From positions 1 through 62,909 of IMG/VR virus record IMGVR_UViG_3300025645_000072: a stretch of DNA of 62,909 nt. One strand, written 5' to 3'. Both the position numbers and the translations under genes were made by a program. Source of the DNA: a virus. Lineage: Duplodnaviria; Caudoviricetes. The notes beneath the pieces are model-generated. The model was not told where the DNA came from and did not search any database. It saw only the letters and a list, made by a program, of their open reading frames with translations. Of the stretch, positions 11,422-35,329 are shown piece after piece (the first letter of the stretch is position 1; each line of letters opens with the position of its first letter).

Positions 11422-12183
11422 ATGAAAAACACAAAAAAAATAGTTTTAGTTAATAAAACTTACAAATTAAAAGGAGATGTTGCTCCTTTAAGTTTAATGA
11501 TACCAGCTAGAAATAGCAGACGATCACCTTTAATGTATTTTGACGAAGACAAGGGAGTAAACAGAGCGCTTCGTTATGCAAGAAATCAAAAAAGTCCTTT
11601 CGAGGACGAGCAAGATGGTAACGCCATCCTAGAGCCTATCGTATTTGAAGATGGGTTTTTATTTGTTCCTAAAACAAATCCAGTATTACAACAGTTTTTA
11701 TCATTACACCCATCTAACGGACATTTATTTATGGAAGTAGATAAGGAGGTTGATGCTACTGCTGATGTTGACACTTTAGATATGGAGCTTGAAGCTCAAG
11801 TATCTGCTAAAGGATTAAGCGTAGAGCTTATGGAAACCATTGGTAGGGTTGTAATTGGATTAAATGTGGACAAACTTAGTTCGGCAGAATTAAAAAGAGA
11901 TATAAGGTTATTTGCAAAAAGATACCCTCAAGATTTTTTAGAATCTCTTAACGATCCTTTATTAATTTTACAGAATAAATGTTCTCAATTTTTGTCAAAC
12001 AATTTAATTATAATGAAAAATGAAAAAGATGTTTATTATAATTTAAAACAAAACAAGAAAAAACTACTAACTGTTCCCTACGGAGAAGATCCTTTATTTA
12101 TATTGGCATCGTTCTTTCAAAGTGATGAAGGACAGGCAGTATTTACTTTATTAAGTAATAGATTAAAAAAACTAGACGAATAA
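11422..12183 (+). CDS. Conserved head-module protein of unknown function
   Basis: 253 aa directly after the capsid gene. Confidence 0.6.
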   Translation: MKNTKKIVLVNKTYKLKGDVAPLSLMIPARNSRRSPLMYFDEDKGVNRALRYARNQKSPFEDEQDGNAILEPIVFEDGFLFVPKTNPVLQQFLSLHPSNGHLFMEVDKEVDATADVDTLDMELEAQVSAKGLSVELMETIGRVVIGLNVDKLSSAELKRDIRLFAKRYPQDFLESLNDPLLILQNKCSQFLSNNLIIMKNEKDVYYNLKQNKKKLLTVPYGEDPLFILASFFQSDEGQAVFTLLSNRLKKLDE

Positions 12184-12221: not shown

Positions 12222-12256
12222 AGAGGTTTCACTAAAATGAAGCCTCTTTTTTTTTT
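12222..12256 (+). terminator. Intrinsic terminator
   Basis: AGAGGTTTCA/TGAAGCCTCT stem followed by a long T run. Confidence 0.8.
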
Positions 12257-12284: not shown

Positions 12285-13259
12285 ATGATTAACACAGTAA
12301 GAGCAACAGTATTGTCGATTGCGAATAAAAACAATTACGGATATATAACTCCTAGTGATTTTAATTTATATGCAAAGCAAGCTCAATTAGATATTTTTGA
12401 AGATTATTTTTATCAATATAATAGTTGGATTATAAAGCAAAATGCCAGAGTTTCTGGCAGTGAATATGCAGATATACTAAAAGGATTAGTAGAGGTTATC
12501 GATAGTTTTTCTGAAACAAGAGGTTTAATTAATAATGGTATCAACTTATATAATCTTCCCGAAAACTACTACTTGATAAATAAAGTAAACTACTACCCTA
12601 ACGTTATACTTTCATCTACCAGTACAGCGGCTGGATTAAATACGCTTACTGATGCTAATGCTACTTTCGTTACAACAGGAACTGTAAAACCTGGACAATT
12701 TGTATCAAACACTTCAGTAAACAGTATATACGCTGGATTTGGTGCATATGTGATTAGTGTGGATTCAGAGACTCAATTAACATTATCTGGAAATCCATTT
12801 GGTACTGCAAGTACAGTAGGTAATTCATACACTATTGTAACAACAGCAGGTATAAGAGAAATAGAAAGAGTTTCTCAAAATAAAATATTTTATTTAAATT
12901 CTTCTAGTTTAACATCACCAAGTGCTTCGTATCCTGCCTATGTTTTAGGAGGTGGTACTAGCACCGCTATTGGAAATACTATAACTGTATATCCTGAAAG
13001 CATAACTGGTGCTGGTAAAATTTTATCACAATATATAAGATACCCATTAGATCCTAACTGGACATATAGTACATTAACAGCTGGAGAGCCTGTTTTTGAT
13101 GAAGGTGCGGCAGATTATCAAGATTTTGAACTTCCTGATTCTGATGAACCTAATTTAGTAAATAAGATATTGCAATATGCAGGTGTATCAATAAGAGAGA
13201 ATGATATAGCTACATTTGGAAATATTCAAGAACAAGAAGATAATCAACAACAATCATAA
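12285..13259 (+). CDS. Putative neck/ring (head-tail adaptor) protein
   Basis: GYITPSDFNLYAKQAQ N-terminus and YIRYP..P C-terminal motif; position in the structural module. Confidence 0.55.
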   Translation: MINTVRATVLSIANKNNYGYITPSDFNLYAKQAQLDIFEDYFYQYNSWIIKQNARVSGSEYADILKGLVEVIDSFSETRGLINNGINLYNLPENYYLINKVNYYPNVILSSTSTAAGLNTLTDANATFVTTGTVKPGQFVSNTSVNSIYAGFGAYVISVDSETQLTLSGNPFGTASTVGNSYTIVTTAGIREIERVSQNKIFYLNSSSLTSPSASYPAYVLGGGTSTAIGNTITVYPESITGAGKILSQYIRYPLDPNWTYSTLTAGEPVFDEGAADYQDFELPDSDEPNLVNKILQYAGVSIRENDIATFGNIQEQEDNQQQS

Positions 13260-22038: not shown

Positions 22039-24279
22039 ATGGCGGATAGATTAGATATTGCAAAATTAAAACTAGAGAAAGGTTTATTAAGCAATAAAGG
22101 AGTGCCGAGTCAAGATTTAGCTACAGGTCTTCAAGGGCTTTTTAGTGGTATTGATGCTGATGTACAAGCTAAAAGAGAAACTCGTCAAAAATTTAAAGAA
22201 GAAAGTGCCTCAGACATAAGAGACCTTAGAGCTTTAAGAGCAGAGGCAGAAGCAGCTGGAGCTACAAAAGATAAAAGTTCTTCAGGAAAAAGTATTAAGT
22301 TAGGTGATATACCAACTAGTACTACATTAGCCAACTGGACTCTTAGTCAATTAGATGGATTTATACAAGACTCTTATGACAAGCAAGAAATAGTAACCTC
22401 TGGCTTAGGAGGGCAGTTTGCTGTAAGAGATTACAATATATTTAAAAACAATCAAAAACAAACTTGGCAAGCTGTAAAAGGAAGAGCTGATGCTGCTGGA
22501 AAAGAATTAGAAGAAACAATAAGAAGAGCAGAAGGTTATACTAATGAAAAAGGAGTTTTTATTCCTCCAGTTGCGGGAGCAGGCGAAGCTGCTTTTCAAA
22601 GATACCAAAGTATTATAGGTGACTTAAACAATACTAGAGTAAGATCTGGTGAAGATGGTATGGGTGTTGTTGAGGTTTATGAAACAGTGTTTGATAAAGA
22701 GACTGGTGTTCAAAAAAGAGTGCTAGATGCAGATGGTAATCCAGTGATAAATAAAAATATCAGTGGAACAAGTGTAATGGCTTTATTAAATAAAGAAAAT
22801 TCAAGATGGCAAAAAACAGATGTAATTAGTTCTGTAGAAAAAGCTTTTGGTAAGGACGTTATAGCTTCTTATCAAGTTTCAACAAATCATCCAGGATATA
22901 TAAAGGGAAGTAGTAAGGAGGATAATATTAGACGTAATCCTAGTTTTACTAGATACCAAGATACTTTTATAAAAAAAACATTACCTAATAACAGAGCGGT
23001 TTCAAGCGCATTGACCGATAATTATGGTGGTGAATTCTATCAATTAGACCCTAGTCAAACTGCAAGCGGAATAGTTGACGGGACAAAAATTGATATGAAT
23101 GAAACTGTATCAGTTAGTGTTCTAACTGGATATGACTCTAATGGAAAACCAATATATGAAAATATTGAAGCTCCTAAATATATAGGATCAAAAGTAGAGG
23201 GTGATGGTATTGTTGTTCAAACAACAGACAAGCACAAGGCAGCAGCATCAGGAATTGTAAGAGCCACTATTGACGGGCAGCTAGGTATTAAAGTTGTTGA
23301 TGGTGTAGCTATAAAACAGTTTGATCCTTATAGAGATAGTAAGGTAAAATCTCGAGATAGAAAAAATAAAGGTGTAGATCTGTTTAAACAAATAACTAGA
23401 AGTTATGATGGTAAATCTGATGATGTTAAAAATGCAATAGAAAACCTTATGATTAGTAGTAAGTTTAAATTTAATGAAACTGAAGCTATAAAAGACGGTG
23501 ACACTGTGGTTTCTCAAACATATAATGTAGATAAAGGAGATGGAAAATTTGCAGAATTTAAAATTACTTTACAAACTGAAAACCCTAAATGGGAAGAAGA
23601 TAAACAAGAAGGACTGAAAGAAGGTGATGCAGGTTATGTACCTAAGTATCTTCCTATATCTAAAGCAGAGTACGAAGATAAGATGTACGAATTGTTTAAA
23701 GGACGTGACGACAATAGTTCTGTTTCAGAGGCTAGAAAAAACTATAGTTCAATTAAAGCTAATAATTATTCACCAACAGGTACTTTTAATGCTGCAGGAG
23801 ACAGAAATATGGCTTTTGAGACTACAGAGAATGTAGAGGTTGCAGAGATTCCTGAAGTTACTGCAAATAGTGCAATAGGTGAAGGTAAAGATGCAGTATC
23901 TGCTGTTGAGTTTGTAATGAATTCTGAAGGATTTAGTGATCTTGAAGCAAATTGGGATTGGAATGGTGCTAATACTAGGGAAATAGATCAAATGGGAGAT
24001 TCTCTTAAAAGTGCATTTGCAGAGCTTGCAAAAGGTCAAGGTGCTAATCAAGGAGGAGATATTTCTTTTGTAACAAACGGTACAAAAATAGATGTAATGA
24101 ATGGAGACACTGTTGTTGATTCAATAGAGTTTGATTTAAACGAAAAGAGTACATTAAAACAAGCTATTACTACAGCCTTAGACGCTGCAACAAAAGCAGG
24201 TTTACCTGGAAGAGCAGCAGGAACTAGAAAGAAAAGATCTGTAGGAGGAAATGAAGTAAAACCAGGGAAATTTGACTAA
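22039..24279 (+). CDS. Putative internal virion/cargo protein
   Basis: 746 aa, between the small ejection protein and the giant protein. Confidence 0.5.
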   Translation: MADRLDIAKLKLEKGLLSNKGVPSQDLATGLQGLFSGIDADVQAKRETRQKFKEESASDIRDLRALRAEAEAAGATKDKSSSGKSIKLGDIPTSTTLANWTLSQLDGFIQDSYDKQEIVTSGLGGQFAVRDYNIFKNNQKQTWQAVKGRADAAGKELEETIRRAEGYTNEKGVFIPPVAGAGEAAFQRYQSIIGDLNNTRVRSGEDGMGVVEVYETVFDKETGVQKRVLDADGNPVINKNISGTSVMALLNKENSRWQKTDVISSVEKAFGKDVIASYQVSTNHPGYIKGSSKEDNIRRNPSFTRYQDTFIKKTLPNNRAVSSALTDNYGGEFYQLDPSQTASGIVDGTKIDMNETVSVSVLTGYDSNGKPIYENIEAPKYIGSKVEGDGIVVQTTDKHKAAASGIVRATIDGQLGIKVVDGVAIKQFDPYRDSKVKSRDRKNKGVDLFKQITRSYDGKSDDVKNAIENLMISSKFKFNETEAIKDGDTVVSQTYNVDKGDGKFAEFKITLQTENPKWEEDKQEGLKEGDAGYVPKYLPISKAEYEDKMYELFKGRDDNSSVSEARKNYSSIKANNYSPTGTFNAAGDRNMAFETTENVEVAEIPEVTANSAIGEGKDAVSAVEFVMNSEGFSDLEANWDWNGANTREIDQMGDSLKSAFAELAKGQGANQGGDISFVTNGTKIDVMNGDTVVDSIEFDLNEKSTLKQAITTALDAATKAGLPGRAAGTRKKRSVGGNEVKPGKFD

Positions 24280-27200
24280 TGGAAAAAATATATCAACTTT
24301 TATTTGAGGCTGGAGATTATACTAAGTCTTTTGAAGAATTTGTAGAGCAATATGGTAGTGTTGAAAAATCTAAACCACTATATAAAGGACTTAATGATGT
24401 TGGTGATTATACCAAGTCTTTTGAAGAATTTACATCTCAATATGGTTTTAGTGATGAGGTAAAAAAAAAAGACCAGCCTGTCGTTTCTACTGGGGAAGAG
24501 GCAAGTATGGTTGGCACTACACCAATTCAAGAAACACCAGATACCTTATTGGAATCTGGAGGTCTGTTAAATAATAACACAGAATTAAATTCTATTATGG
24601 TTGGAGAAATTCCTTTCTCACAACTATCTGCTCAAGAACAACAAACTTTTTACGAAGAGATTGAAAGACTGGAGAAAGCTGAAAAGCTAAACAAAGCTGC
24701 AGCCGATAATCCTTATGGTATAAGAGTGGATGAAAGGTTTAAACCTTTAGAAATTGAAGGTCTAAATATAGAAAAAGATCCCATTGTTATTGCTGCTCAA
24801 GAGTTGTATAGTAAAAAAAACAAGCCTACAGATTTTTCTAAACTTGTTGAAGGTGTTGAAGATACAGAAAAAATAGCATCAGCTAATAGAGTTGACTTAT
24901 TAAAAAAATTCCAAAAATCTAAAAACAATACTAACTTATCTTTTACTGAAGACGGTAAAATAGTTGGTAATAGAACAATACCAAAGGGTGTTATTGGAAC
25001 TACTCCAAAAGTTAAAGACGAGAATTTAAATTGGTTTCAAAAACTCATAATGTCTCCAGAGGAGTATAATGAAATAGAAGAAGCTAAAACTGTAAATCCA
25101 GAACTGTTATCTAAAATGGATATTGATGTTTCTGATTATCAAGCTTGGGAATCAGAAAACACAAAGGAAGATGGTTTTGTATACCAACAAGTACAAGATT
25201 TAATAAACTCAGATTCTGACAATGACTACCTAAACGATAAAAGAAATTTTAAAAAATTATCTGCATACGTTAATAGTATGGGTGATGAAATAGAGAATGA
25301 CTTATCTGTTATTGAGAATAAATTATTGTTTGAAACTAACCAGGAAACAAGAAGACAGCTACTAAATACTCAGTCTAAATTAAAAGCTCAACAAATTAAA
25401 AACATATCAAGACAGTATAATATTATAAGTTTATTTCCTGCTCTTGAAGGATCTGAAGATGCTAAGAAAAATAGAAGAGAGCAATATATAATAGACCAGA
25501 GAAACGGAGATGTTTCTGGAGGGTTTGGAGATGCAGTTTTATTACCTGCAGCAGACTCTGCAATAAAATTTATTGGTGGTATTTTTGCAGCTATACCATC
25601 TTGGGTAGAACAAGGAGGTAATTTAGCTGGTTTTGAAATGGAAGGTTTAAGAGCTTTGAATGAAAGTTTAGACTCTATGCTTTCTAATGAAGTAGGAACT
25701 GTTGATGGTGCGTTAGATACCTCTACTATTGAAAGAAGAACTGTAGAAAAATTAAAGCCCGTTACTATTAATTGGAAAGGAAAACCTTTGCAAGTAGGTG
25801 TTACTCCAGAAGGAGATATTGTAGATATAAATACAATGGTTTCAATGGGTGGTATCTTAACTAATGACGAGGTTAAAGAAGTAAATGAATTAGCAAAAAA
25901 AGTTCCTAACTACGAGTATGAGTGGTCAGCAGGATCAATTACTCAAGGTACAGTAGGTACTTTAGTTAATTTAGTAGGGCTAATAAAAGGTGGAAAATGG
26001 GCGACAAAAGCTATTCAAAAAGGACTTAAAAAAACTGGTTTAAAAACCACTGTTCCTGGAGGTATAGGTATGGGTTCTGTTTCATATATGTCTACTGTTG
26101 CTGGAGAAGTTAATGATATTAAAAGCCAGCTTATGGAAGCTGGAGTTCCTGAAGAAGAGGCTATGTCTAGAGCCATAATGTATGGTAATGGTAGAGCTAG
26201 CTTAGATGGAATATTTTCAGGACTAGCAGGTGGAAACACAAAACTACTTGAAGCTACAAAGAGCTTTCCAAAAATACTAAAAGACTTAGCTTTAAAACCT
26301 AAAACAGTTGTTAGCAGTAAAGTGTTTCAGGATAAAGTAAAAGACCTGGTTAAAGAAAACGGTAAAGAACTTTTTATAGAAGAGTTGCCAGTGCTTTTTA
26401 CAGGTAATATATTAAATGGATTAGCTAATGATTCTGTAGGTAAACAAATTTTAAATGAATCTACATCAAACAGAGATATTGTTGAGACAGCTATACTAAC
26501 TGTTCTTGCTACAACTGGTGTAGGATCTAAAAGACTTTTATCTAACAACAAAAGAAAGGACTTAATAAGAGCTGCATCATTAAGTAGTAATATAGAAAAA
26601 GATATTGCGAACTTGGTTAACTCTGGTCAAATGTCTGTAGCTGATGCTAAGTCAGTTTACCAGGAAATATACAGTATGCAAACTGCTCTAAACCAAACAC
26701 AAGGTTCGGTTGTTATGAGTGGTAATCAAGAAGAAGCTGCTGCTCTTTTAAATCAAAGAAGAAAGTTGATGGATCAACGAAGTAATTTAGAAGGTCCATT
26801 AAAAGAAGATATAGATAAAAAGATTGAAGATGTTGACAAACAAATAGAAATTTTAAAAGCAGAAGATACTGCTCAAGCTATAGAAGCTTCTGGAGGAGAA
26901 ACAACTACAGATGTTAACGTAACTAAAGATGATGCTTTAGCTTCTTTAAAAGCAGAGAATGAGGTAAGGTTAAAAGCAAACCTACCTGCTATTATAGAGT
27001 CTGAAGAGAATATTTTAAAAGAACAAGATAAACTAATAAAAGAAAAACAAGATGCCATTCAAGAGTCAAAAACAGAGGAGCAAGTGCTATCAGATGATGG
27101 CGGAAGCAAAGAAACAGGGGAAACCGATAAAGTGGAATTGCAAGGAGTGGGAAAAGGAGACACACGTCAAACTACCGTCACTGATGAGAAAACGCTAACT

Positions 27201-30200
27201 CCAGAACAACAAGTAAAATCTGATGAGTTAAATAAAAAAAGAGACGAAAAGATAGATCAAGAGTCTCGTAGGTTTGTAGTTCCTGGAACTAAGATTCAGG
27301 TTCAAATGAACGCTGATGGTACTGCTAATCCAGTGGCTTTAAAAGAAAATACAGATAAGCCAGTAAATAAATCTAGTCAGGCTAAGGCTAATAAAATGAT
27401 ATTAGAAAATGTTATTGATGTTAATGCTGGAGATAAGTTAGACCTAGAAGGTGATACCAATTTAACTGAAGAGCAATATTCTGAAGCTGTTGCTGATAAA
27501 TCTAACAATGTAAAGGAGGTTGCTGAAACACTTGACGCTGAAAGAAAAAAGAGAAAGTCTAAAACAAAAGAAGAGAAGGAAAGATTAGTAGACCCTTTAG
27601 ATATAAAAGGAAAGATAGGAAAAATTACTGAAGCAGATTATGTTAAGTATGGTGACAGAAATAACATTACTTCAGCAATGAAAAGGTTTTGGTTTAAAAA
27701 CAAAAATAAATTTGGACAAAACCCATCGTCTGATTTAGATACAAGAGTTCAAGAGTTAGATGGGTATACTACTGAAAACGAAAGTCAATACATACAGGAT
27801 GTTATAGATTTTATAACTGCTAACCCTACTGGTAAATTAGACATTGAATCAGGTGTTTCTCAGGTTGAAAAAGATTTAGAGGCTAAGTTTGAACAGTTAA
27901 CAGGTTTAAAACCAACACCAGTAAATATTAGAACTGTAAATAATATTGACCCCAACAGAGAGCCTATTAGTGAGACTCAAAAGAAAAGTAAAGATGTATT
28001 ACAGAAAGAAGCTTCTGAACCTGGTGTCTTTGGAAAGAAGAAAGGTCCTTCTCTAGATAAAATATTAGGTAAAAAGAAAACGTCTTCAGATAAAACAAAA
28101 CAAGAGGGCGAGAATGTAAACAGAAAAAAGTTTTGGAGAAGCTGGAACAAAGCATACAGAGAGTCTAAAAAAGATCAGACCACTAGAAGAAAACAACTTT
28201 CAGATGCTATCCAGGATTTACTAGAATCAAAAATTATATCAACAAAAAAAGCAAAGTCTTTAATTAAAAAGATTTCTGGTGTAAATCTCAATAATCCACG
28301 ATTAGTAAATCAAGTACTTGAATATATAACCAAGGTAAACATTGATGCTGTTAATGCTCAGAAGTTTGACGATGCTAAGAATTTTAATAAAAAAATAAAA
28401 AGGCTTTTAAAAAGCGATTCATTAGATGCAGAGGTTGCTATAGCTGCAAAGCAATTTAATAAGATAGATCCTAACTTAGTTGAGGACTTAGATTTATATT
28501 TAGAAAATGCACAGAAAGTTGTTAATGGTTTGACTAAAACCAAGACAGATAAAGAAGGTAATTTAATTTTTGCTGGAACTATAGACATAAAAGGATTAGA
28601 CAATTATACCTCTAAAGTATTAAAGAACGAGGTTGATCTTATAAGAAAGGCAGAAGCACAGGCGTTTAGTGATTTAACAGGGCTTGACTCTAGTGAGTTT
28701 ACTATTGATGAGATGAGATCTATTTTAGAAAAATCAGACTCAGAAAAGTTAACCGAAGCTAATGAGCAAATGGCTAATGATAAAGACGATGTAATAACTA
28801 AAGGTGTTAAAAGAGCATTTGAAGCATATAAGGGAGCTATTAATGATATAATAAAAAATAGAATTGATCCTATTAGTGGTGAACCTTTAGTTATAAGTAA
28901 GGCTGATCAAAAAGTTATAAAAGACTTTATGGAAGTTGATATTGACCTAATGACTACAGCTAAAGAAAAGCTAGAAGCTTTAGATGCTATGGTTAATTTT
29001 ATTGTCAATCAAGGGACTGGTGGTGTAGTAGCTACAACTAAACGTAATGAAGGGATGAAGAACGTTATTGAAGCTAATAAGAAATTAAAGCCAGCCAGAA
29101 AATTAAAACTTTTTGGTTCTGAAAAAGTTGCTGATTTTTGGTATAAAAAACTAGGTGCAACTCCTAGAATAATTGAAAATTTATTTAAAGGAACATCTAC
29201 AGCTAGAATTTTTAATAAGCTATCTGGTTTTGATGGATTTAGAAATGGAGTAGCAAAAGCTGAAAAACTATCTAACGATATTGCAGAAGCTTATGTAGAC
29301 AAGTTTATAAAGCCAACTAGTAGAAAGAATGCAATAAAAGGTACTACAAAAACACAGCCCAACGGTACAGATTTCAATACAGCAGCTAATGACACTGAAA
29401 GAGGTGTATTTGCTTTTATGAGAAGAACTGTAGATGGAACTAAAGAGGAGCAGAAAAATGAATTTAAAAGACGTAAAGATTTAATTGAAGAAACTATTAC
29501 AACTTTGAATGATTCAGGAGAAACAAAAAAATCTCAACTTATTAAAGAATCTTTTGATAAAATACTTTCAGGGTCTAATAGTATACAAGACATTGAAGAT
29601 AAAGTTGATCCTATAAATAAAGAGGCTGTTGAATGGATGACTGCTGAGTGGTCAAAAGTTAGACCTGAATTAGAAAACGTATCGTTAAATGTATATAACA
29701 AAGTTTTAGGTAAAGACATAAACTATACTCCAGACTCATTTAGTTCATTAAAGGACCAAGTAAGTAGTGTTGATCAAGAGATTGGTAGCCCACAATTCCA
29801 AGGTACTTCTCAGAAAATTTACGATAAAGAATCAGGTGTTTTAATGGATATTGTCAGACCTAAAAAATTACCAGCGGGAAGGGTTGTAAACCTTGGTTTC
29901 GACTCTTCAAATATAAGTAATTTAAAAGATGCTTTAACTGATCTTGAAACAGCAGAAAGTATACAAATAATGAAAGGTTTTTTAGGTACTTCAAAAAATA
30001 TGAATCCTGCTTTTAAAAGTTTAATTCCTGATGTAGATAATAGGAATCTTATTTTCAGTAAGTTTCAGAATTATGTAAATTCTAAAAGAGGGGCAAGCCA
30101 AAAAATTCAAGATAAAGAGACTGTAAAGTTGCTTAATCAGATAGCTGGAATTGGTGTTTCTAGAGTTTTAGGTGGACCAACACAGTTTTTAAAGCAGTTA

Positions 30201-31469
30201 ACTCCATTAGTAAACACAGCTACAAATTTAATGTTTGATCTTGGATCTGTAGGTAAGGGTATTCAGTTAATAACATCTAATCCTGATGCTCAAAAATGGC
30301 TAGCAAACTCTGGATATGAAATTGCTAATCGTGGGTTGCAGTCTATAACGAACTTAGAAGGTACTAATACAAAACTAGATAAGTCTGCTGAAGGAAGAAG
30401 AGAGAAACTTGGAAGAGCAGTAATAGAAGCTAATAAATTTTATTTAGAAAAGTTTTTAGTTAATCCAGATAGGTTTGCGGCTCAAGCTTCCTGGATAGCA
30501 TACTATATGAATGACTTAAAAAAACAAGGTATAGATCCTTCTAATATAGACTGGTCGAATCATAAGGTAAATAAACAAGCTGGTGCTTTTGCAGAGCAAC
30601 AAGTTGGAAGACAACAAAATGTTTCTGACACAGACTTGCAGGGTGATTTATTTAACAGTAAAAATGCTACATCACAGGTTGCTCGTAAAATATTTTTTCC
30701 ATTCGCCAACTTTTTATTAAATCAAAAAACAAGAATGTATACTGATTTTAATATAGCACTTAGTAAAACAGCTACAAAAGATGATAAAAGAAATGCGTAT
30801 CGTTCTTTAGCTGGTCTTGGAGTAGAGACGGCTGTGTTTAATTTATTAGGGTTGGCTGTTACTCAAGGATTGGCTGCTGTATCACAAGGATTAACAGGTG
30901 ATGATGACGAGGAGGATAAAGAAAAAGCATTTGAAAATAGAAAAAAAGGTAGAGCTGGTAATGTAGTTAAAGATATTTTATCACCTATACCCCCATTAGA
31001 TGACTTAACTTTAATGATGGTTAATAAGGTTATAAAAACTGCAAGTGACGGAGATGATCCTTTTCAATTTTTTGCAAAAGATAAAAAAACATTTATAGAG
31101 CAGGCAGGTGTTTTAGGTATACCATTTGGAACTGCTGGTGAGTTATTTGAGATGATAGGTATGGGATCTACTGGAACTTATACGGATAATTATGGTAAAG
31201 AAAGAGAAATTGATCCATCATTAAAAGGGGCAATGAATCTTAATGGTTTAGCCTACCTTCTATATAGTCTAGGTATTCTTCCTTCTGAAGCAGGTTCTAT
31301 TATTAAGTATAATGTAAAGTCCTATAAGAAAAGTGGAAAGAAAAGTAAAGGTGGTTCAGGAATTCCTATAAAAAGAAAGACAAAGCCGAAAAAGAAAACT
31401 AAGAAGAGAAGATCTAGTGGTGGACCATTATTAGGTGGTAAGAAAAAATCAGGAGGGAGTTTATTTTGA
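24279..31469 (+). CDS. Giant internal virion/cargo (DNA delivery) protein
   Basis: 2396 aa, helical, with hydrophobic Gly-rich segments, an N-terminal GDYTKSFEEF..QYG duplication and a very basic C-terminal tail. Confidence 0.6.
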   Translation: MEKIYQLLFEAGDYTKSFEEFVEQYGSVEKSKPLYKGLNDVGDYTKSFEEFTSQYGFSDEVKKKDQPVVSTGEEASMVGTTPIQETPDTLLESGGLLNNNTELNSIMVGEIPFSQLSAQEQQTFYEEIERLEKAEKLNKAAADNPYGIRVDERFKPLEIEGLNIEKDPIVIAAQELYSKKNKPTDFSKLVEGVEDTEKIASANRVDLLKKFQKSKNNTNLSFTEDGKIVGNRTIPKGVIGTTPKVKDENLNWFQKLIMSPEEYNEIEEAKTVNPELLSKMDIDVSDYQAWESENTKEDGFVYQQVQDLINSDSDNDYLNDKRNFKKLSAYVNSMGDEIENDLSVIENKLLFETNQETRRQLLNTQSKLKAQQIKNISRQYNIISLFPALEGSEDAKKNRREQYIIDQRNGDVSGGFGDAVLLPAADSAIKFIGGIFAAIPSWVEQGGNLAGFEMEGLRALNESLDSMLSNEVGTVDGALDTSTIERRTVEKLKPVTINWKGKPLQVGVTPEGDIVDINTMVSMGGILTNDEVKEVNELAKKVPNYEYEWSAGSITQGTVGTLVNLVGLIKGGKWATKAIQKGLKKTGLKTTVPGGIGMGSVSYMSTVAGEVNDIKSQLMEAGVPEEEAMSRAIMYGNGRASLDGIFSGLAGGNTKLLEATKSFPKILKDLALKPKTVVSSKVFQDKVKDLVKENGKELFIEELPVLFTGNILNGLANDSVGKQILNESTSNRDIVETAILTVLATTGVGSKRLLSNNKRKDLIRAASLSSNIEKDIANLVNSGQMSVADAKSVYQEIYSMQTALNQTQGSVVMSGNQEEAAALLNQRRKLMDQRSNLEGPLKEDIDKKIEDVDKQIEILKAEDTAQAIEASGGETTTDVNVTKDDALASLKAENEVRLKANLPAIIESEENILKEQDKLIKEKQDAIQESKTEEQVLSDDGGSKETGETDKVELQGVGKGDTRQTTVTDEKTLTPEQQVKSDELNKKRDEKIDQESRRFVVPGTKIQVQMNADGTANPVALKENTDKPVNKSSQAKANKMILENVIDVNAGDKLDLEGDTNLTEEQYSEAVADKSNNVKEVAETLDAERKKRKSKTKEEKERLVDPLDIKGKIGKITEADYVKYGDRNNITSAMKRFWFKNKNKFGQNPSSDLDTRVQELDGYTTENESQYIQDVIDFITANPTGKLDIESGVSQVEKDLEAKFEQLTGLKPTPVNIRTVNNIDPNREPISETQKKSKDVLQKEASEPGVFGKKKGPSLDKILGKKKTSSDKTKQEGENVNRKKFWRSWNKAYRESKKDQTTRRKQLSDAIQDLLESKIISTKKAKSLIKKISGVNLNNPRLVNQVLEYITKVNIDAVNAQKFDDAKNFNKKIKRLLKSDSLDAEVAIAAKQFNKIDPNLVEDLDLYLENAQKVVNGLTKTKTDKEGNLIFAGTIDIKGLDNYTSKVLKNEVDLIRKAEAQAFSDLTGLDSSEFTIDEMRSILEKSDSEKLTEANEQMANDKDDVITKGVKRAFEAYKGAINDIIKNRIDPISGEPLVISKADQKVIKDFMEVDIDLMTTAKEKLEALDAMVNFIVNQGTGGVVATTKRNEGMKNVIEANKKLKPARKLKLFGSEKVADFWYKKLGATPRIIENLFKGTSTARIFNKLSGFDGFRNGVAKAEKLSNDIAEAYVDKFIKPTSRKNAIKGTTKTQPNGTDFNTAANDTERGVFAFMRRTVDGTKEEQKNEFKRRKDLIEETITTLNDSGETKKSQLIKESFDKILSGSNSIQDIEDKVDPINKEAVEWMTAEWSKVRPELENVSLNVYNKVLGKDINYTPDSFSSLKDQVSSVDQEIGSPQFQGTSQKIYDKESGVLMDIVRPKKLPAGRVVNLGFDSSNISNLKDALTDLETAESIQIMKGFLGTSKNMNPAFKSLIPDVDNRNLIFSKFQNYVNSKRGASQKIQDKETVKLLNQIAGIGVSRVLGGPTQFLKQLTPLVNTATNLMFDLGSVGKGIQLITSNPDAQKWLANSGYEIANRGLQSITNLEGTNTKLDKSAEGRREKLGRAVIEANKFYLEKFLVNPDRFAAQASWIAYYMNDLKKQGIDPSNIDWSNHKVNKQAGAFAEQQVGRQQNVSDTDLQGDLFNSKNATSQVARKIFFPFANFLLNQKTRMYTDFNIALSKTATKDDKRNAYRSLAGLGVETAVFNLLGLAVTQGLAAVSQGLTGDDDEEDKEKAFENRKKGRAGNVVKDILSPIPPLDDLTLMMVNKVIKTASDGDDPFQFFAKDKKTFIEQAGVLGIPFGTAGELFEMIGMGSTGTYTDNYGKEREIDPSLKGAMNLNGLAYLLYSLGILPSEAGSIIKYNVKSYKKSGKKSKGGSGIPIKRKTKPKKKTKKRRSSGGPLLGGKKKSGGSLF
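27052..27198 (+). CDS. Nested +1-frame small basic protein MPFKSQKQRSKCYQMMAEAKKQGKPIKWNCKEWEKETHVKLPSLMRKR
   Basis: 48-aa ORF inside the giant gene; A-rich leader AACTAATAAAAGAAAAACAAG; resembles small phage MPFKS..QR...W..ET..KLP proteins. Confidence 0.6.
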   Translation: MPFKSQKQRSKCYQMMAEAKKQGKPIKWNCKEWEKETHVKLPSLMRKR

Positions 31470-31844
31470 TGAATGAATCTCAGCGTGACACCTGGAACAA
31501 ACAACAATACATTTTTCTATTTCTTTTTTAATAGTTTCAAGTCCTTTACCTTGAGCGATACCATTGCTGACTGAAAAACTTTTATCATTATTTTTATGGT
31601 GAAATTCTAATGCTCGGCTGCGAAAACTTTTGTTTGTTTTTTTTGAATATCCACAAACACTACAAGCAAGTTTCTCTTTGTATTCTCTTAGCCAAATTCT
31701 TTTGTTTCGCCTCCTTTGTTTTTTAACAACAAGAGTACATTTTTTACATTCAGTTCTAAAATATTTGCCGTCTTTATTAAATTCTGTTATTGCTTTAGAG
31801 ACTTTACACTGCTTGCATATTCTAACTTGTTCATTAGAACTCAT
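31461..31844 (-). CDS. HNH endonuclease with zinc-finger N-terminus
   Basis: CKQC/CKKC, CSVC, LEFHH, CIVVCSRCH motifs. Confidence 0.85.
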   Translation of the reverse strand: MSSNEQVRICKQCKVSKAITEFNKDGKYFRTECKKCTLVVKKQRRRNKRIWLREYKEKLACSVCGYSKKTNKSFRSRALEFHHKNNDKSFSVSNGIAQGKGLETIKKEIEKCIVVCSRCHAEIHSSK

Positions 31845-33160: not shown

Positions 33161-34393
33161 TTACAAACTTAACAAATCTCTTTTAAAATGTTTTAAAGTA
33201 TAATCCTTTTTTTTACTTACCGATTTATAAATATCTGGTTCGATTCCTCCTTTTGTAAAAACCCAAACCACTTTATTCTCTAGTCTATTTTTAGTTGTCA
33301 TTCTGTCTCTTGATTGCCAATAACTGGTGGCACTAAAATCTATATTGTAATATAAAAGTATGTCTGCTTTTCTCAAACTTATACCTTCTCTTCCTGACAC
33401 AATTTGCAAAGCTATAGATTTATTCGTGGTATTAAATGTTTCTAAATCAGTACATATATTTTTACCATATATTTTTTTTATAGCATTAAGCTCCTCTTTA
33501 AACTTATAAAATATTCCTATTTTTTGAGAACAGAAGTTGTCATAAATAAATTTAGCTTTAAAAGTATCTAACACCATAGACTTACCACTTTCAAACTTAA
33601 CAGTTCCACTATACATTTGGTGTAGTTTTTGCATTAGCTTTACTCCAGTGTCAGCAAGAATAACATCTTCCTTACCCTCAATAACTAAATCTTTTTTTAA
33701 TTTACTGCAAAGATTCATAATCATATCAGGAGCATTAACATAAATAATGTCTTCGTTTATCTTTGATTTAAAACCTGCTTCTCTTTGTGTATAAGAAATT
33801 GTGTATGGTTTCATTTGATCCAGGATGCTTTGTTTTCCTGTTGAGTAATCATTTACTATAAACCCACCTATTCTTTTTGTTTTAGGAACAACATAATCTT
33901 TAGCAAACTTATAAAAGTTTGTGTATTTACTAAATGGACTTTTTATTAATCCATAAACCTGATGGTACATTTGACTAAATGATTCTGGAGTAGGAGTTCC
34001 AGATAAAAATATAACATAAGGATCATTTTTTATTATTAACTCCTTTACTTGTTTTGCTCTTTTACTTGGTTTAGGGAACGCACCCATACTGTGTGACTCA
34101 TCACAAATTATTGCACTCCAACCACGTTGGTCTATCTTATGAAGGGATTCGTAGTTTATTACAAGCAGTTCGTAGTAAGGTTTTAGCATTTCAAAATCTT
34201 TGTAAATACTAGTAATTGCTTTTTTCTTTGTAATAAATAATACTTTATTTATATTTTTTATCTTATCCAGGATTCCTAATGAAGTAAGAGTTTTTCCTGT
34301 TCTAACCTCCATAGATAAGTATATAAATTTTTTTTCATTTATTATTTTTAATGCTTTATTTATAATATTAGATTGATACTTTCTAAATTCCAT
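33161..34393 (-). CDS. SF2 (SNF2-like) helicase
   Basis: MEVRTGKT Walker A, ICDESH, LSGTP, GREGISL and QSRDR motifs. Confidence 0.85.
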   Translation of the reverse strand: MEFRKYQSNIINKALKIINEKKFIYLSMEVRTGKTLTSLGILDKIKNINKVLFITKKKAITSIYKDFEMLKPYYELLVINYESLHKIDQRGWSAIICDESHSMGAFPKPSKRAKQVKELIIKNDPYVIFLSGTPTPESFSQMYHQVYGLIKSPFSKYTNFYKFAKDYVVPKTKRIGGFIVNDYSTGKQSILDQMKPYTISYTQREAGFKSKINEDIIYVNAPDMIMNLCSKLKKDLVIEGKEDVILADTGVKLMQKLHQMYSGTVKFESGKSMVLDTFKAKFIYDNFCSQKIGIFYKFKEELNAIKKIYGKNICTDLETFNTTNKSIALQIVSGREGISLRKADILLYYNIDFSATSYWQSRDRMTTKNRLENKVVWVFTKGGIEPDIYKSVSKKKDYTLKHFKRDLLSL

Positions 34394-34817
34394 AATTTAA
34401 AATTTTTACTGAGGCCCATTGTTTTGGCAATAAATAAACCTCCTTATTTATTTTTGGAGATTCAGTAAAATATGTTGTTGGAGGACAACTCATATCTTCT
34501 GTAGATAATACGTTTATGTCTATTTCGTTTAGCCAAAAAATATAAATTCCTGTTGGATCTTGTACTAAATAAAACTTATGCTCATATTTTAGAAACGAGC
34601 TTTGCATAAGCCTTTCATATTTTTTTTTCTCCAACATCATATCTTCATAATGTTTTGTTCTAAATTTCATTTCCATTATGCAACCGTTTCTTTTTTTGGT
34701 ATAACCTATGGCATCATAATGTTCATAGTCCATACCTGTATGTGATAATTCCCAACCAAATATTTCATTTAGAAAATTTATTATTGCAATTTCTTTTTTA
34801 TGAATTTCACTAATCAT
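34383..34817 (-). CDS. PD-(D/E)xK-like nuclease
   Basis: YDA...IMEMKFR...EKKKY pattern. Confidence 0.55.
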   Translation of the reverse strand: MISEIHKKEIAIINFLNEIFGWELSHTGMDYEHYDAIGYTKKRNGCIMEMKFRTKHYEDMMLEKKKYERLMQSSFLKYEHKFYLVQDPTGIYIFWLNEIDINVLSTEDMSCPPTTYFTESPKINKEVYLLPKQWASVKILNYGI

Positions 34818-35076
34818 TGAGTTGTTTTTTTATTTTTAATAATACGGCGCATCTTTCATATTCCTCTGTTTCCTCAAAATATGCTATTAAAATATCTATA
34901 GATGATCTTTTTACTTTTTTACTTATATCGTGAATAAAGAACTCTATGTCTGTAATTACTATGTCTTCAATTTTTATGTCATTTACAATAACATCGTAAG
35001 AATTTAACATAGCCCAGTGCAATTCCTCATCATCATACTCATCAAAAACACCCTCGAAAGGATCATATTTATCCAT
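34810..35076 (-). CDS. Hypothetical protein with UVR-like C-terminal motif
   Basis: YFEETEEYERCAVL.KI. Confidence 0.55.
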   Translation of the reverse strand: MDKYDPFEGVFDEYDDEELHWAMLNSYDVIVNDIKIEDIVITDIEFFIHDISKKVKRSSIDILIAYFEETEEYERCAVLLKIKKQLND

Positions 35077-35329
35077 AGTTTTCTCGCAGGTATTTGTAGA
35101 CTTCTGGCAATTTCTCCATTGCTTTTTTCTGTGATTTATATTCTATTTTACCTAAGTGTTCTTTACTATATAAAGTAATGTTTTTTTTTGAATCATAAAA
35201 TTTATCCTTTCCATTTGTTGATATTCCTCCTTTTCTAATTGCTATTTTATAGTGTATTATATCTATTGGTTTTATATAAACTTGCCAATCGTTATCAATA
35301 CACCATTTAAAATCAGAACTCCAACTCAT
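35069..35329 (-). CDS. Hypothetical protein
   Basis: ORF overlapping both neighbours. Confidence 0.6.
   Translation of the reverse strand: MSWSSDFKWCIDNDWQVYIKPIDIIHYKIAIRKGGISTNGKDKFYDSKKNITLYSKEHLGKIEYKSQKKAMEKLPEVYKYLRENYG

Follow-up and report, generated by a model that had tools for sequence, protein, structure and literature searches.

One gene yields a full-length protein, tau, and a truncated, N-identical one, gamma, at the lysine-codon slip site of dnaX. The homologous dnaX genes are split between two kinds of site, a heptamer with a hairpin and a homopolymer run of at least 9 bases; frameshifting on A_AAA_AAG is described for Escherichia coli and run slippage for Thermus thermophilus (PMC5009743). 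In potyviruses, P3N-PIPO results from transcriptional slippage at GA6, by which one A is added, and carries a functional trans-frame tail (PMC4552492, PMC5027478). Bacteriophage lambda G/GT is a case from a phage structural module, where a slip sets the ratio of two N-sharing proteins (PMC5009743), and in orfA/orfAB of insertion sequence (IS) elements recoding takes place at A_AAA_AAG or at A-runs, by the ribosome at some sites and in transcription at others. Here we analyze a locus that resembles each of these systems in part. It lies in the virus record IMGVR_UViG_3300025645_000072 (Duplodnaviria; Caudoviricetes), and this complete record of 62,909 bases is called the window below. Near the 5′ end of its giant gene, which encodes 2396 amino acids (aa), a run of ten adenines (A10) is followed by an open −1 frame. 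Comparison with related phages makes it highly probable that the run acts as a programmed recoding site with a −1 product made by either route, transcriptional or ribosomal, and we see an even chance that RNA polymerase slippage is the main route at the window A10.

With dnaX the locus shares the lysine codons of the slip site, a predicted N-identical truncated form and a homologous set divided between the same two kinds of site. It differs in that dnaX belongs to the replicase, whereas the gene here is a phage virion-protein gene. The phage shift would lie ~60 codons from the start, the short form would amount to ~4% of the long one, and the predicted trans-frame tail of 18–43 codons is itself conserved. 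The gamma tail of E. coli dnaX, in contrast, is a single residue. The likeness to P3N-PIPO consists in a short overlapping ORF (open reading frame) within a very long one, which is recognizable by its conservation and suppressed variation, and in a predicted N-coincident product with a trans-frame tail; however, potyviruses are RNA viruses in which the viral RNA-dependent RNA polymerase slips on a 6–7-base run, whereas in the double-stranded DNA phage the run has 10 bases and transcription is by a DNA-dependent RNA polymerase of the bacterium or of the phage. In lambda, it is the longer protein that results from the frameshift, and the gene lies ahead of the one for the tape measure, the layout of long-tailed phages. 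The phage studied here belongs to a podovirus group (Elemovirus, Pervagoviridae and Pachyviridae relatives), its shifted product would be short and the gene is a giant terminal structural gene; we did not find the G/GT arrangement, in which a pair of small overlapping ORFs immediately precedes the tape-measure gene, but a site inside the 5′ end of the 2396-aa ORF. Four Cellulophaga Pachyviridae records resemble the IS elements: at TTA AAA AAA AAG, frame 0 holds a small ORF and the −1 frame the giant one. The window gene, however, is no transposase, and its long product is in frame 0. As far as our literature searches show, the mechanism is of a known kind and the gene family and product are new. 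We found no paper describing the site in the literature on crAss-like and Cellulophaga phage frameshifting, and the excerpted parts of a 2016 recoding review do not mention Flavobacter, Bacteroidetes or Cellulophaga.

Slip site and reading frames in the window

The elements at the 5′ end of the giant gene are arranged as follows.

24279–31469, + strand: giant ORF, 2396 aa, final gene of the + strand structural block
24279–24458, + strand: N-terminal module of 60 residues with two GDYTKSFEEF..QYG copies
24452–24457, + strand: −1 frame stops TGA TGA, immediately 5′ of the run
24461–24470, + strand: A10 slip site, GTA AAA AAA AAA GAC (codons 61–65), holding in-frame A_AAA_AAA heptamers
24470–24574, + strand: −1 ORF, 34 sense codons (24470–24571), then TAA (24572–24574)
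24472–24570, + strand: +1 frame, open for 32 codons, TAA at 24568–24570
24476–24502, + strand: hairpin proposed earlier (GCCT...AGGC), part of the predicted minimum free energy (MFE) fold

The motif GDYTKSFEEF..QYG occupies residues 12–26 (24312–24356) and 42–56 (24402–24446), and the run follows this duplication in the sequence and frame that a sequence-only reading of the stretch had given. The N-terminal module would be common to all products of the giant gene. The run provides an in-frame slippery heptamer of the type X_XXY_YYZ, GT[A AAA AAA] AAA GAC. As a coding-strand homopolymer it also exceeds the at least 9 A or T of bacterial-type transcriptional slippage, and bacterial RNA polymerase is described to slip efficiently at runs of 9 A or T (PMC5009743). 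Because TGA TGA closes the −1 frame just before the run, this frame can be entered only at or after 24458. From stop to stop it extends over 24458–24574, that is 38 codons without ATG, GTG or TTG, so that entry is by a shift only. The opening of 34 codons up to the TAA, likewise claimed beforehand, was confirmed; its peptide is RPACRFYWGRGKYGWHYTNSRNTRYLIGIWRSVK, with Y-G-W at 24506–24514 and L-I-G-I-W at 24545–24559. The +1 frame is a possible third product of the giant gene if one A were lost, and no conserved motif was found in it.

Inside the ORFs of the window, the run at 24461–24470 is the only A10 and the longest A-run on the sense strand. Elsewhere in its ORFs the window keeps clear of long A-runs and breaks up lysine runs: only 2 of 13 KKK tripeptides are written AAA AAA AAA versus 51% expected, with AAA making up 80% of the Lys codons. 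Just two other sense-strand A9 runs occur in ORFs, at 34620–34628 and 35181–35189 in the minus-strand genes 34383–34817 and 35069–35329; the former encodes E-KKK-Y as GAG AAA AAA AAA TAT. The only other 10-base homopolymer, T10 at 12247–12256 between the ORFs 11422–12183 and 12285–13259, possibly belongs to a terminator.

Conservation of the site across distant loci

Our distant set comprised 56 viral loci with the N-terminal domain, and eight N-termini of giant homologs were aligned. In most giant homologs the two-repeat module is followed by VKKKD, LKKKD, EKKN, QKKN or EKKK. A slip site occupies the homologous spot in 51 of the 56 loci, as A10 (28 loci), A9 (2), A7 (3) or N_NNA_AAG (18), the remaining five being incomplete or without a site, and a −1 ORF of 18–43 codons lies downstream in 51/51. 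The A7 sites read GT A_AAA_AAA G. Among the N_NNA_AAG sites, four show the perfect heptamer G_GGA_AAG and the others A_GCA_AAG or A_GTA_AAG.

Runs of A9–A11 are kept in 31 unique contexts and additionally in the uncultured genome MW202828.1. The 31 contexts comprise the registers NNA AAA AAA AAA (V/L/I/S/A-KKK), GAA AAA AAA AAN (EKKN/EKKK) and AAA AAA AAA, with the A10 loci in two codon registers. Since the run is found in three registers, the nucleotides are conserved and not one peptide. An in-frame A_AAA_AAA, A_AAA_AAG or A_AAA_AAN is contained in every long-run register. The sequence-only reading had proposed to look in homologs for a conserved A-run and an open −1 frame, and a slip-prone site with its −1 ORF is indeed kept far beyond the close relatives.

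Signs of coding selection on the −1 frame

The −1 frame bears the signature of protein-coding selection and looks translated. Among 28 unique long-run loci, 19 had a −1 frame more open than synonymous reshuffles of the 0 frame (P<0.05), with simulated medians of 1–18 versus 18–43 codons observed. The −1 motif was present in 23/28 of these loci and was retained in at most 0.7% of the reshuffling trials. Alignment of 24 −1 peptides gave the consensus Y-G-I-x-x-G-x-W-F-F-G, in which the two glycines are invariant and the tyrosine is nearly so. These glycines use all four GGN codons, and the 0-frame residue over the free base is V, E, D, A or G. The 0-frame codon preceding the first glycine is ATG (11), ACG (12) or TCG (1), for the second glycine it is TTG (12) or TCG (12), and the codon that gives the first base of the −1 tyrosine ends in T in 24/24 peptides, over eight amino acids (in one peptide Phe, TTC, replaces Tyr). 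In the overlap, 0-frame ACG stands at 22/128 versus 59/1066 elsewhere in the same ORFs, TCG at 25/166 versus 31/1222 and TTG at 26/50 versus 142/1453. This enrichment is three- to five-fold (p = 1e-5 to 3e-13), and five control codons were not enriched.

Where a long run is lacking (21 unique loci), the −1 ORF still spans at least 34 codons in 18, and 18/18 show the Y/F-G..G core; a stricter two-part motif pattern was matched by only 10/21. A G-S-L-D-S-S-like motif recurs in the 0 frame over the same bases, and both frames may therefore be coding here. In the short-site clade (L026–L045 type), the −1 peptide opens with C-x-C-G-x-x-C-G, ~10–45 nucleotides (nt) after A_AAG. These residues are encoded by the bases of the frameshift hairpin, and their conservation may thus stem from the RNA and not from the peptide.

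RNA structure downstream of the site

For the 75 nt after the window run, the MFE was −15.8 kcal/mol with z = 0.07 versus shuffles. The stimulatory hairpin GCCT...AGGC that had been suggested for the window does lie within this fold, but given this z value and the lack of a shared structure in the long-run relatives we do not uphold it. No common or unusually stable structure was found among the long-run loci, window included, and no common or proximal helix among the cultured long-run phages.

The short-site loci are different. In 15 loci that align without gaps, a 9-bp helix begins 6 nt past A_AAG; 99.3% of its cells are paired, 4/9 pairs are compensatory and 0/500 shuffles match its covariation score. 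Slid controls pair at only 25–44%, and RNAalifold recovers the same helix. Four more short-site loci have helices of their own at the same spacing. By its sequence, this arrangement is a textbook −1 ribosomal frameshift cassette. A conserved or covarying stimulatory structure 5–9 nt downstream was thus found in the short-site relatives only and not in the window. The mean fold z was about −0.2 for long-run versus about −1.5 for short-site loci, and a site thus comprises 9 or more A's and lacks a structure, or has no more than 7 and is followed by one.

Close relatives and exchange of the N-terminal module

The A10, the 34-codon −1 ORF and its stop are kept in 6/6 close IMG/VR contigs, whose giant proteins are 71–99% identical. 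All six have an entirely different N-terminal module of 93–95 aa, also with two repeats, that is fused exactly at the run. In total, at least three unrelated N-terminal modules precede nearly identical giant genes with breakpoints at the first A of the run: GDYTKSFEEF, FETPNGS…/YISPNGS… and a third one ending …FGSYDDFVSL, which was seen as a contig branch only. The module is hence exchangeable among related phages. The modules of the Cellulophaga phages phi13:2 and phi18:3 are likewise swapped at the run, and in these sequences it is a junction for the exchange of N-terminal modules.

Between the window and its relative L004 (71% identical overall), blocks of ~100% nucleotide identity, e.g., residues 62–215, 312–412 and 900–980, alternate with blocks of 40–70% identity. 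This pattern indicates that the giant gene is a mosaic from recent recombination. We also considered suppressed synonymous change after the run in the close relatives L002–L008, whose DNA is nearly identical there, and rejected it, since blocks of ~100% identity recur along the whole gene.

Cultured phages and related genomes

Cultured relatives were reached via the terminase. Its similarity groups the window with Flavobacterium Elemovirus (47%), with Cellulophaga Pachyviridae/Pervagoviridae phages (36–38%) and with Tenacibaculum phage Gundel_1. The giant gene as a whole, its N-terminal 500 aa and the opening 300 aa of the L036 homolog had no match when compared with the phage collection by blastn/tblastn. 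At nt 170, the giant structural gene of Elemovirus MT497065.1 reads GAA AAA AAA AAT, and its −1 ORF of 46 codons contains the motif. In gp101 of Cellulophaga phi38:1, TTA AAA AAA AAA GAA (A10) at nt 99 is followed by a 24-codon −1 tail, …FGIEF…FGWF. MW202828.1 has an A11, in frame. The gene in question, at the homologous position of this complete genome (L065, 741–12320, minus strand), encodes 3859 aa and has the same two-repeat N-terminal module before the A11; its name in the record, 'reticulocyte binding/rhoptry protein', is almost certainly spurious.

The phi18:3, phi19:3, phi46:3 and phi13:2 records have an A9 (TTA AAA AAA AAG ACG) that is out of frame in 4/4. Their N-terminal module is a separate ORF of 87–103 aa in the genomic frame corresponding to the +1 frame of the window. 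The giant frame is open back through the run; a −1 shift or the gain of a single A would give access to it, and the gain of two A's to the motif tail. In phi18:3, the N-terminal module and the giant protein are split at the A9 into gp122 and gp123 (L069 20710–21021 and 21033–26840), and the other three records divide this pair likewise. gp123 is annotated as a structural protein from tandem mass spectrometry (MS/MS), and its annotated TTG start looks like a gene-caller artifact. The A9 may reflect either a homopolymer undercall or a genuine need for slippage. Around the run the four records show ~99% identity, and a single study of the 454 era is their source. BLASTP of the window giant protein (P0001) gave one weak C-terminal match with the Elemovirus giant protein (E = 2e-4) and no significant match with phi18:3 gp123. 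Hence what these data show across genera is a common 5′ architecture, and not homology of the giant bodies.

Traces in public assemblies and sequencing contigs

A short-protein search with residues 1–64 gave 17 matches, of which 14 were read. Assembly ORFs equal to the −1 product (P0058, P0060, P0062) and to the +1 product (P0057, P0061, P0064, P0069) were among them. A profile of the 24 −1 peptides, searched against 1.84 billion representatives, had 8 matches at E <= 0.001. The top match, P0074, has 861 aa and was matched in 8 short stretches; the other seven (P0075–P0081) are ORFs of 80–127 aa in which varied N-terminal modules, KKK and the tail are in frame. The P0080 cluster has six members from two sources. 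These gene calls show that run-length variants reach assemblies, their origin being DNA, RNA or error.

DNA contigs of two further sequencing runs cross the site as A10 without a gap. Contigs from RNA libraries (two runs of one study) cover 24460–24975 and start at 24460, and at 24459/24460 those of DNA runs fork, leading to other N-terminal modules. We therefore rejected the break of the RNA contigs at 24460 as a sign of slippage or of transcription, as the DNA runs show strain branching at this point. What the contigs confirm is the run itself and the module junction. Two metatranscriptome libraries of one study have contigs over 24460–25300 with 95–99% identity; DNA carry-over is possible, and we do not take them as evidence of transcription.

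Giant gene and its surroundings

The + strand of the window carries terminase, portal and virion genes upstream of the giant ORF. A protein search with residues 1–500 as the query yielded giant homologs of 1909–3436 aa (n=55). P0001 itself had no Pfam or PHROG match; its homolog P0032 bears an ART-PolyVal domain (PF18760, E = 7.7e-9), and P0056 has a DUF3293 match below threshold. The positional counterparts of this gene in Cellulophaga phi18:3 and Elemovirus bear a structural annotation. Judged by gene position, the product of the giant ORF is presumably a virion protein of the 'cargo'/polyvalent type, internal or ejected. An HNH endonuclease ORF on the minus strand (31461–31844; phrog_2255, E = 4e-26) and the giant gene are convergent, with an overlap of 9 bases at the end of the latter. 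A scan of 24200–24800 against Rfam had a chance-level sRNA as its sole match (E = 0.76), and no tRNA genes were found in the window.

Discussion

We propose that standard decoding of the giant gene would give the 2396-aa virion protein, while a fixed fraction of expression would enter the −1 frame at the run and end 34 codons on. The resulting −1 product of ~98 aa would consist of the 60-residue two-repeat module, lysines and a basic aromatic/glycine tail (…YGW…LIGIW…) with a motif kept across the family. At the window A10, the polymerase would add one A in part of the mRNAs (A10 to A11), with ribosomal −1 slippage of tRNA-Lys on A_AAA_AAA as a possible contributor. Relatives without a long run would make the same product by −1 ribosomal frameshifting on N_NNA_AAG or A7 with a 5–6 nt spacer and a hairpin, and the A10 site would be common to a large family of ~60–75 kb Flavobacteriia podophages. 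We infer here the shift at the run, its level and its assignment to the polymerase or the ribosome step. Polymerase slippage is favored for A10 because sites with at least 9 A's occur without a structure and those with at most 7 with one, as in dnaX. The sequence-only reading had already proposed a short product of ~98 aa that retains the N-terminal repeats and arises from ribosomal frameshifting or from slippage in transcription, and site conservation together with the signs of selection on −1 coding now supports it well.

Several observations weigh against this proposal. A10 is no rarer than composition predicts (2 in the window versus 5.5 ± 3.7 expected from dinucleotide shuffles). The open −1 frame had been called notable in AT-rich DNA, and within the giant gene it is long: only 0.8% of codons have an open −1 run of at least 34 codons ahead, and the segment at the run is the second longest of 343. 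In the window alone, however, synonymous reshuffling of the 0 frame left at least 34 open −1 codons in 12% of trials (P = 0.12), so this part of the claim holds only weakly. The +1 frame is open too, with an openness tending above reshuffles, and part of the openness is hence that of a hydrophilic, locally GC-richer linker. The −1 peptide motif was defined post hoc from peptides already seen, the loci share ancestry so that counts are not independent events, and the ~100% identity blocks throughout the giant gene make the six closest relatives uninformative on constraint. Of the ten −1-type gene calls, nine are singletons, and eight are on contigs of at most 1.6 kb and one on 7 kb; singletons on short contigs could be assembly or sequencing variants. 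No indel at the run is listed in the contigs of the 24 sequencing runs, and contigs cannot reveal minor variants. Neither the trans-frame products nor the −1 tail had a Pfam or PHROG match, and AlphaFold2 models of three trans-frame gene calls were unusable (pLDDT 48.6). Finally, any A10 contains an in-frame A_AAA_AAA, and transcriptional and ribosomal slippage can thus not be separated by sequence.

With regard to this last point, purely ribosomal −1 frameshifting, by a slip of tRNA-Lys on A_AAA_AAA or by poly-A sliding on a faithful mRNA, would lead to the same ~98-aa product, and we consider it possible, if somewhat unlikely. Ribosomes have been reported to slide on poly-A (PMC4363877), and each long-run register offers them a suitable in-frame heptamer. 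Moreover, for the same −1 ORF the short-site relatives clearly use a ribosomal cassette, in which G_GGA_AAG, A_GCA_AAG or A7 is combined with a covarying hairpin, and from this it follows that host ribosomes can be made to shift here. Yet for ribosomes seven A's would suffice, whereas 9–11 are held in 31 unique contexts; the long runs, furthermore, do without the conserved downstream stimulator that the short sites keep, and the window hairpin is at shuffle level. A wider reading, which we find rather doubtful, takes the run as a three-frame decoding hub throughout the family. Messages with A9, A10 and A11 from polymerase slippage would then give the giant protein, the −1 Y-G…F-F-G tail and the +1 tail, the genome-encoded frame would vary by genus, the MS/MS-detected giant protein of the A9 Cellulophaga Pachyviridae would itself depend on slippage, and the run would also serve as the recombination joint of the N-terminal modules.

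It is improbable that recoding is absent altogether. In this case KKK would be a mere patch of lysines where two domains meet in AT-rich DNA, and constraints acting on the 0-frame linker or on RNA or DNA structure would have conserved the −1 frame incidentally. Such a linker would have both alternative frames open, and the frequency of A10 within compositional expectation, AAA as 80% of the Lys codons and the recurring G-S-L-D-S-S-like motif on the same bases are in agreement with it. It leaves unexplained, however, why the −1 glycines are invariant with free third positions and variable 0-frame residues, why ACG, TCG and TTG are enriched, why the run is retained in three registers while all-AAA KKK is avoided elsewhere in the window, why −1 stops are placed just 5′ of the sites, and why short-site relatives have a covarying hairpin at frameshift spacing. 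We regard as very improbable that run length varies at the DNA level, by replication slippage or phase variation, with sub-populations of A9, A10 and A11 genomes and no recoding. Gene calls with one A more (P0058, P0060, P0062, P0075–P0081) or fewer (P0057, P0061, P0064, P0069) would fit such variation, as would the P0080 cluster with its two sources and the four Cellulophaga A9 records, in which the giant ORF is one frame off the N-terminal module. But the variant calls are mostly singletons on contigs of at most 1.6 kb, the near-identical A9 records of a single study may contain a homopolymer undercall, and the DNA contigs of two further runs read A10 without a gap. In addition, the giant ORF is unbroken at the run in all IMG/VR loci long enough to judge, and phase variation does not explain the hairpin cassette of the short-site relatives.

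Returning to a programmed slip at the A10, the most economical idea is that the short protein is a fixed-ratio, N-coincident partner of the giant protein. We may speculate that the short form takes the partner site of the giant protein's N-terminal module, in the capsid or portal interior or at the host envelope, with a ratio set by the slip frequency, in line with lambda G/GT or dnaX tau/gamma. If the recoding at the run is real, it would give a widespread, previously unannotated small protein to a group of Flavobacteriia phages abundant in marine and fresh waters, which includes Elemovirus, Callevirus, Baltivirus and many uncultured ~62 kb genomes. The family would also be a rare natural series in which one gene family reaches the same overlapping ORF either by run slippage or by a heptamer with a hairpin. 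Such a series would be useful for asking why a lineage picks one route, and cultured phage–host pairs exist for either layout, A10 in frame and A9 out of frame. For annotation it means that gene callers split or truncate the giant gene at the run, as in gp122/gp123 of phi18:3 and in the short 'hypothetical proteins' of assemblies. The short isoform may be an absent component in models of how the giant internal protein is packaged and ejected.

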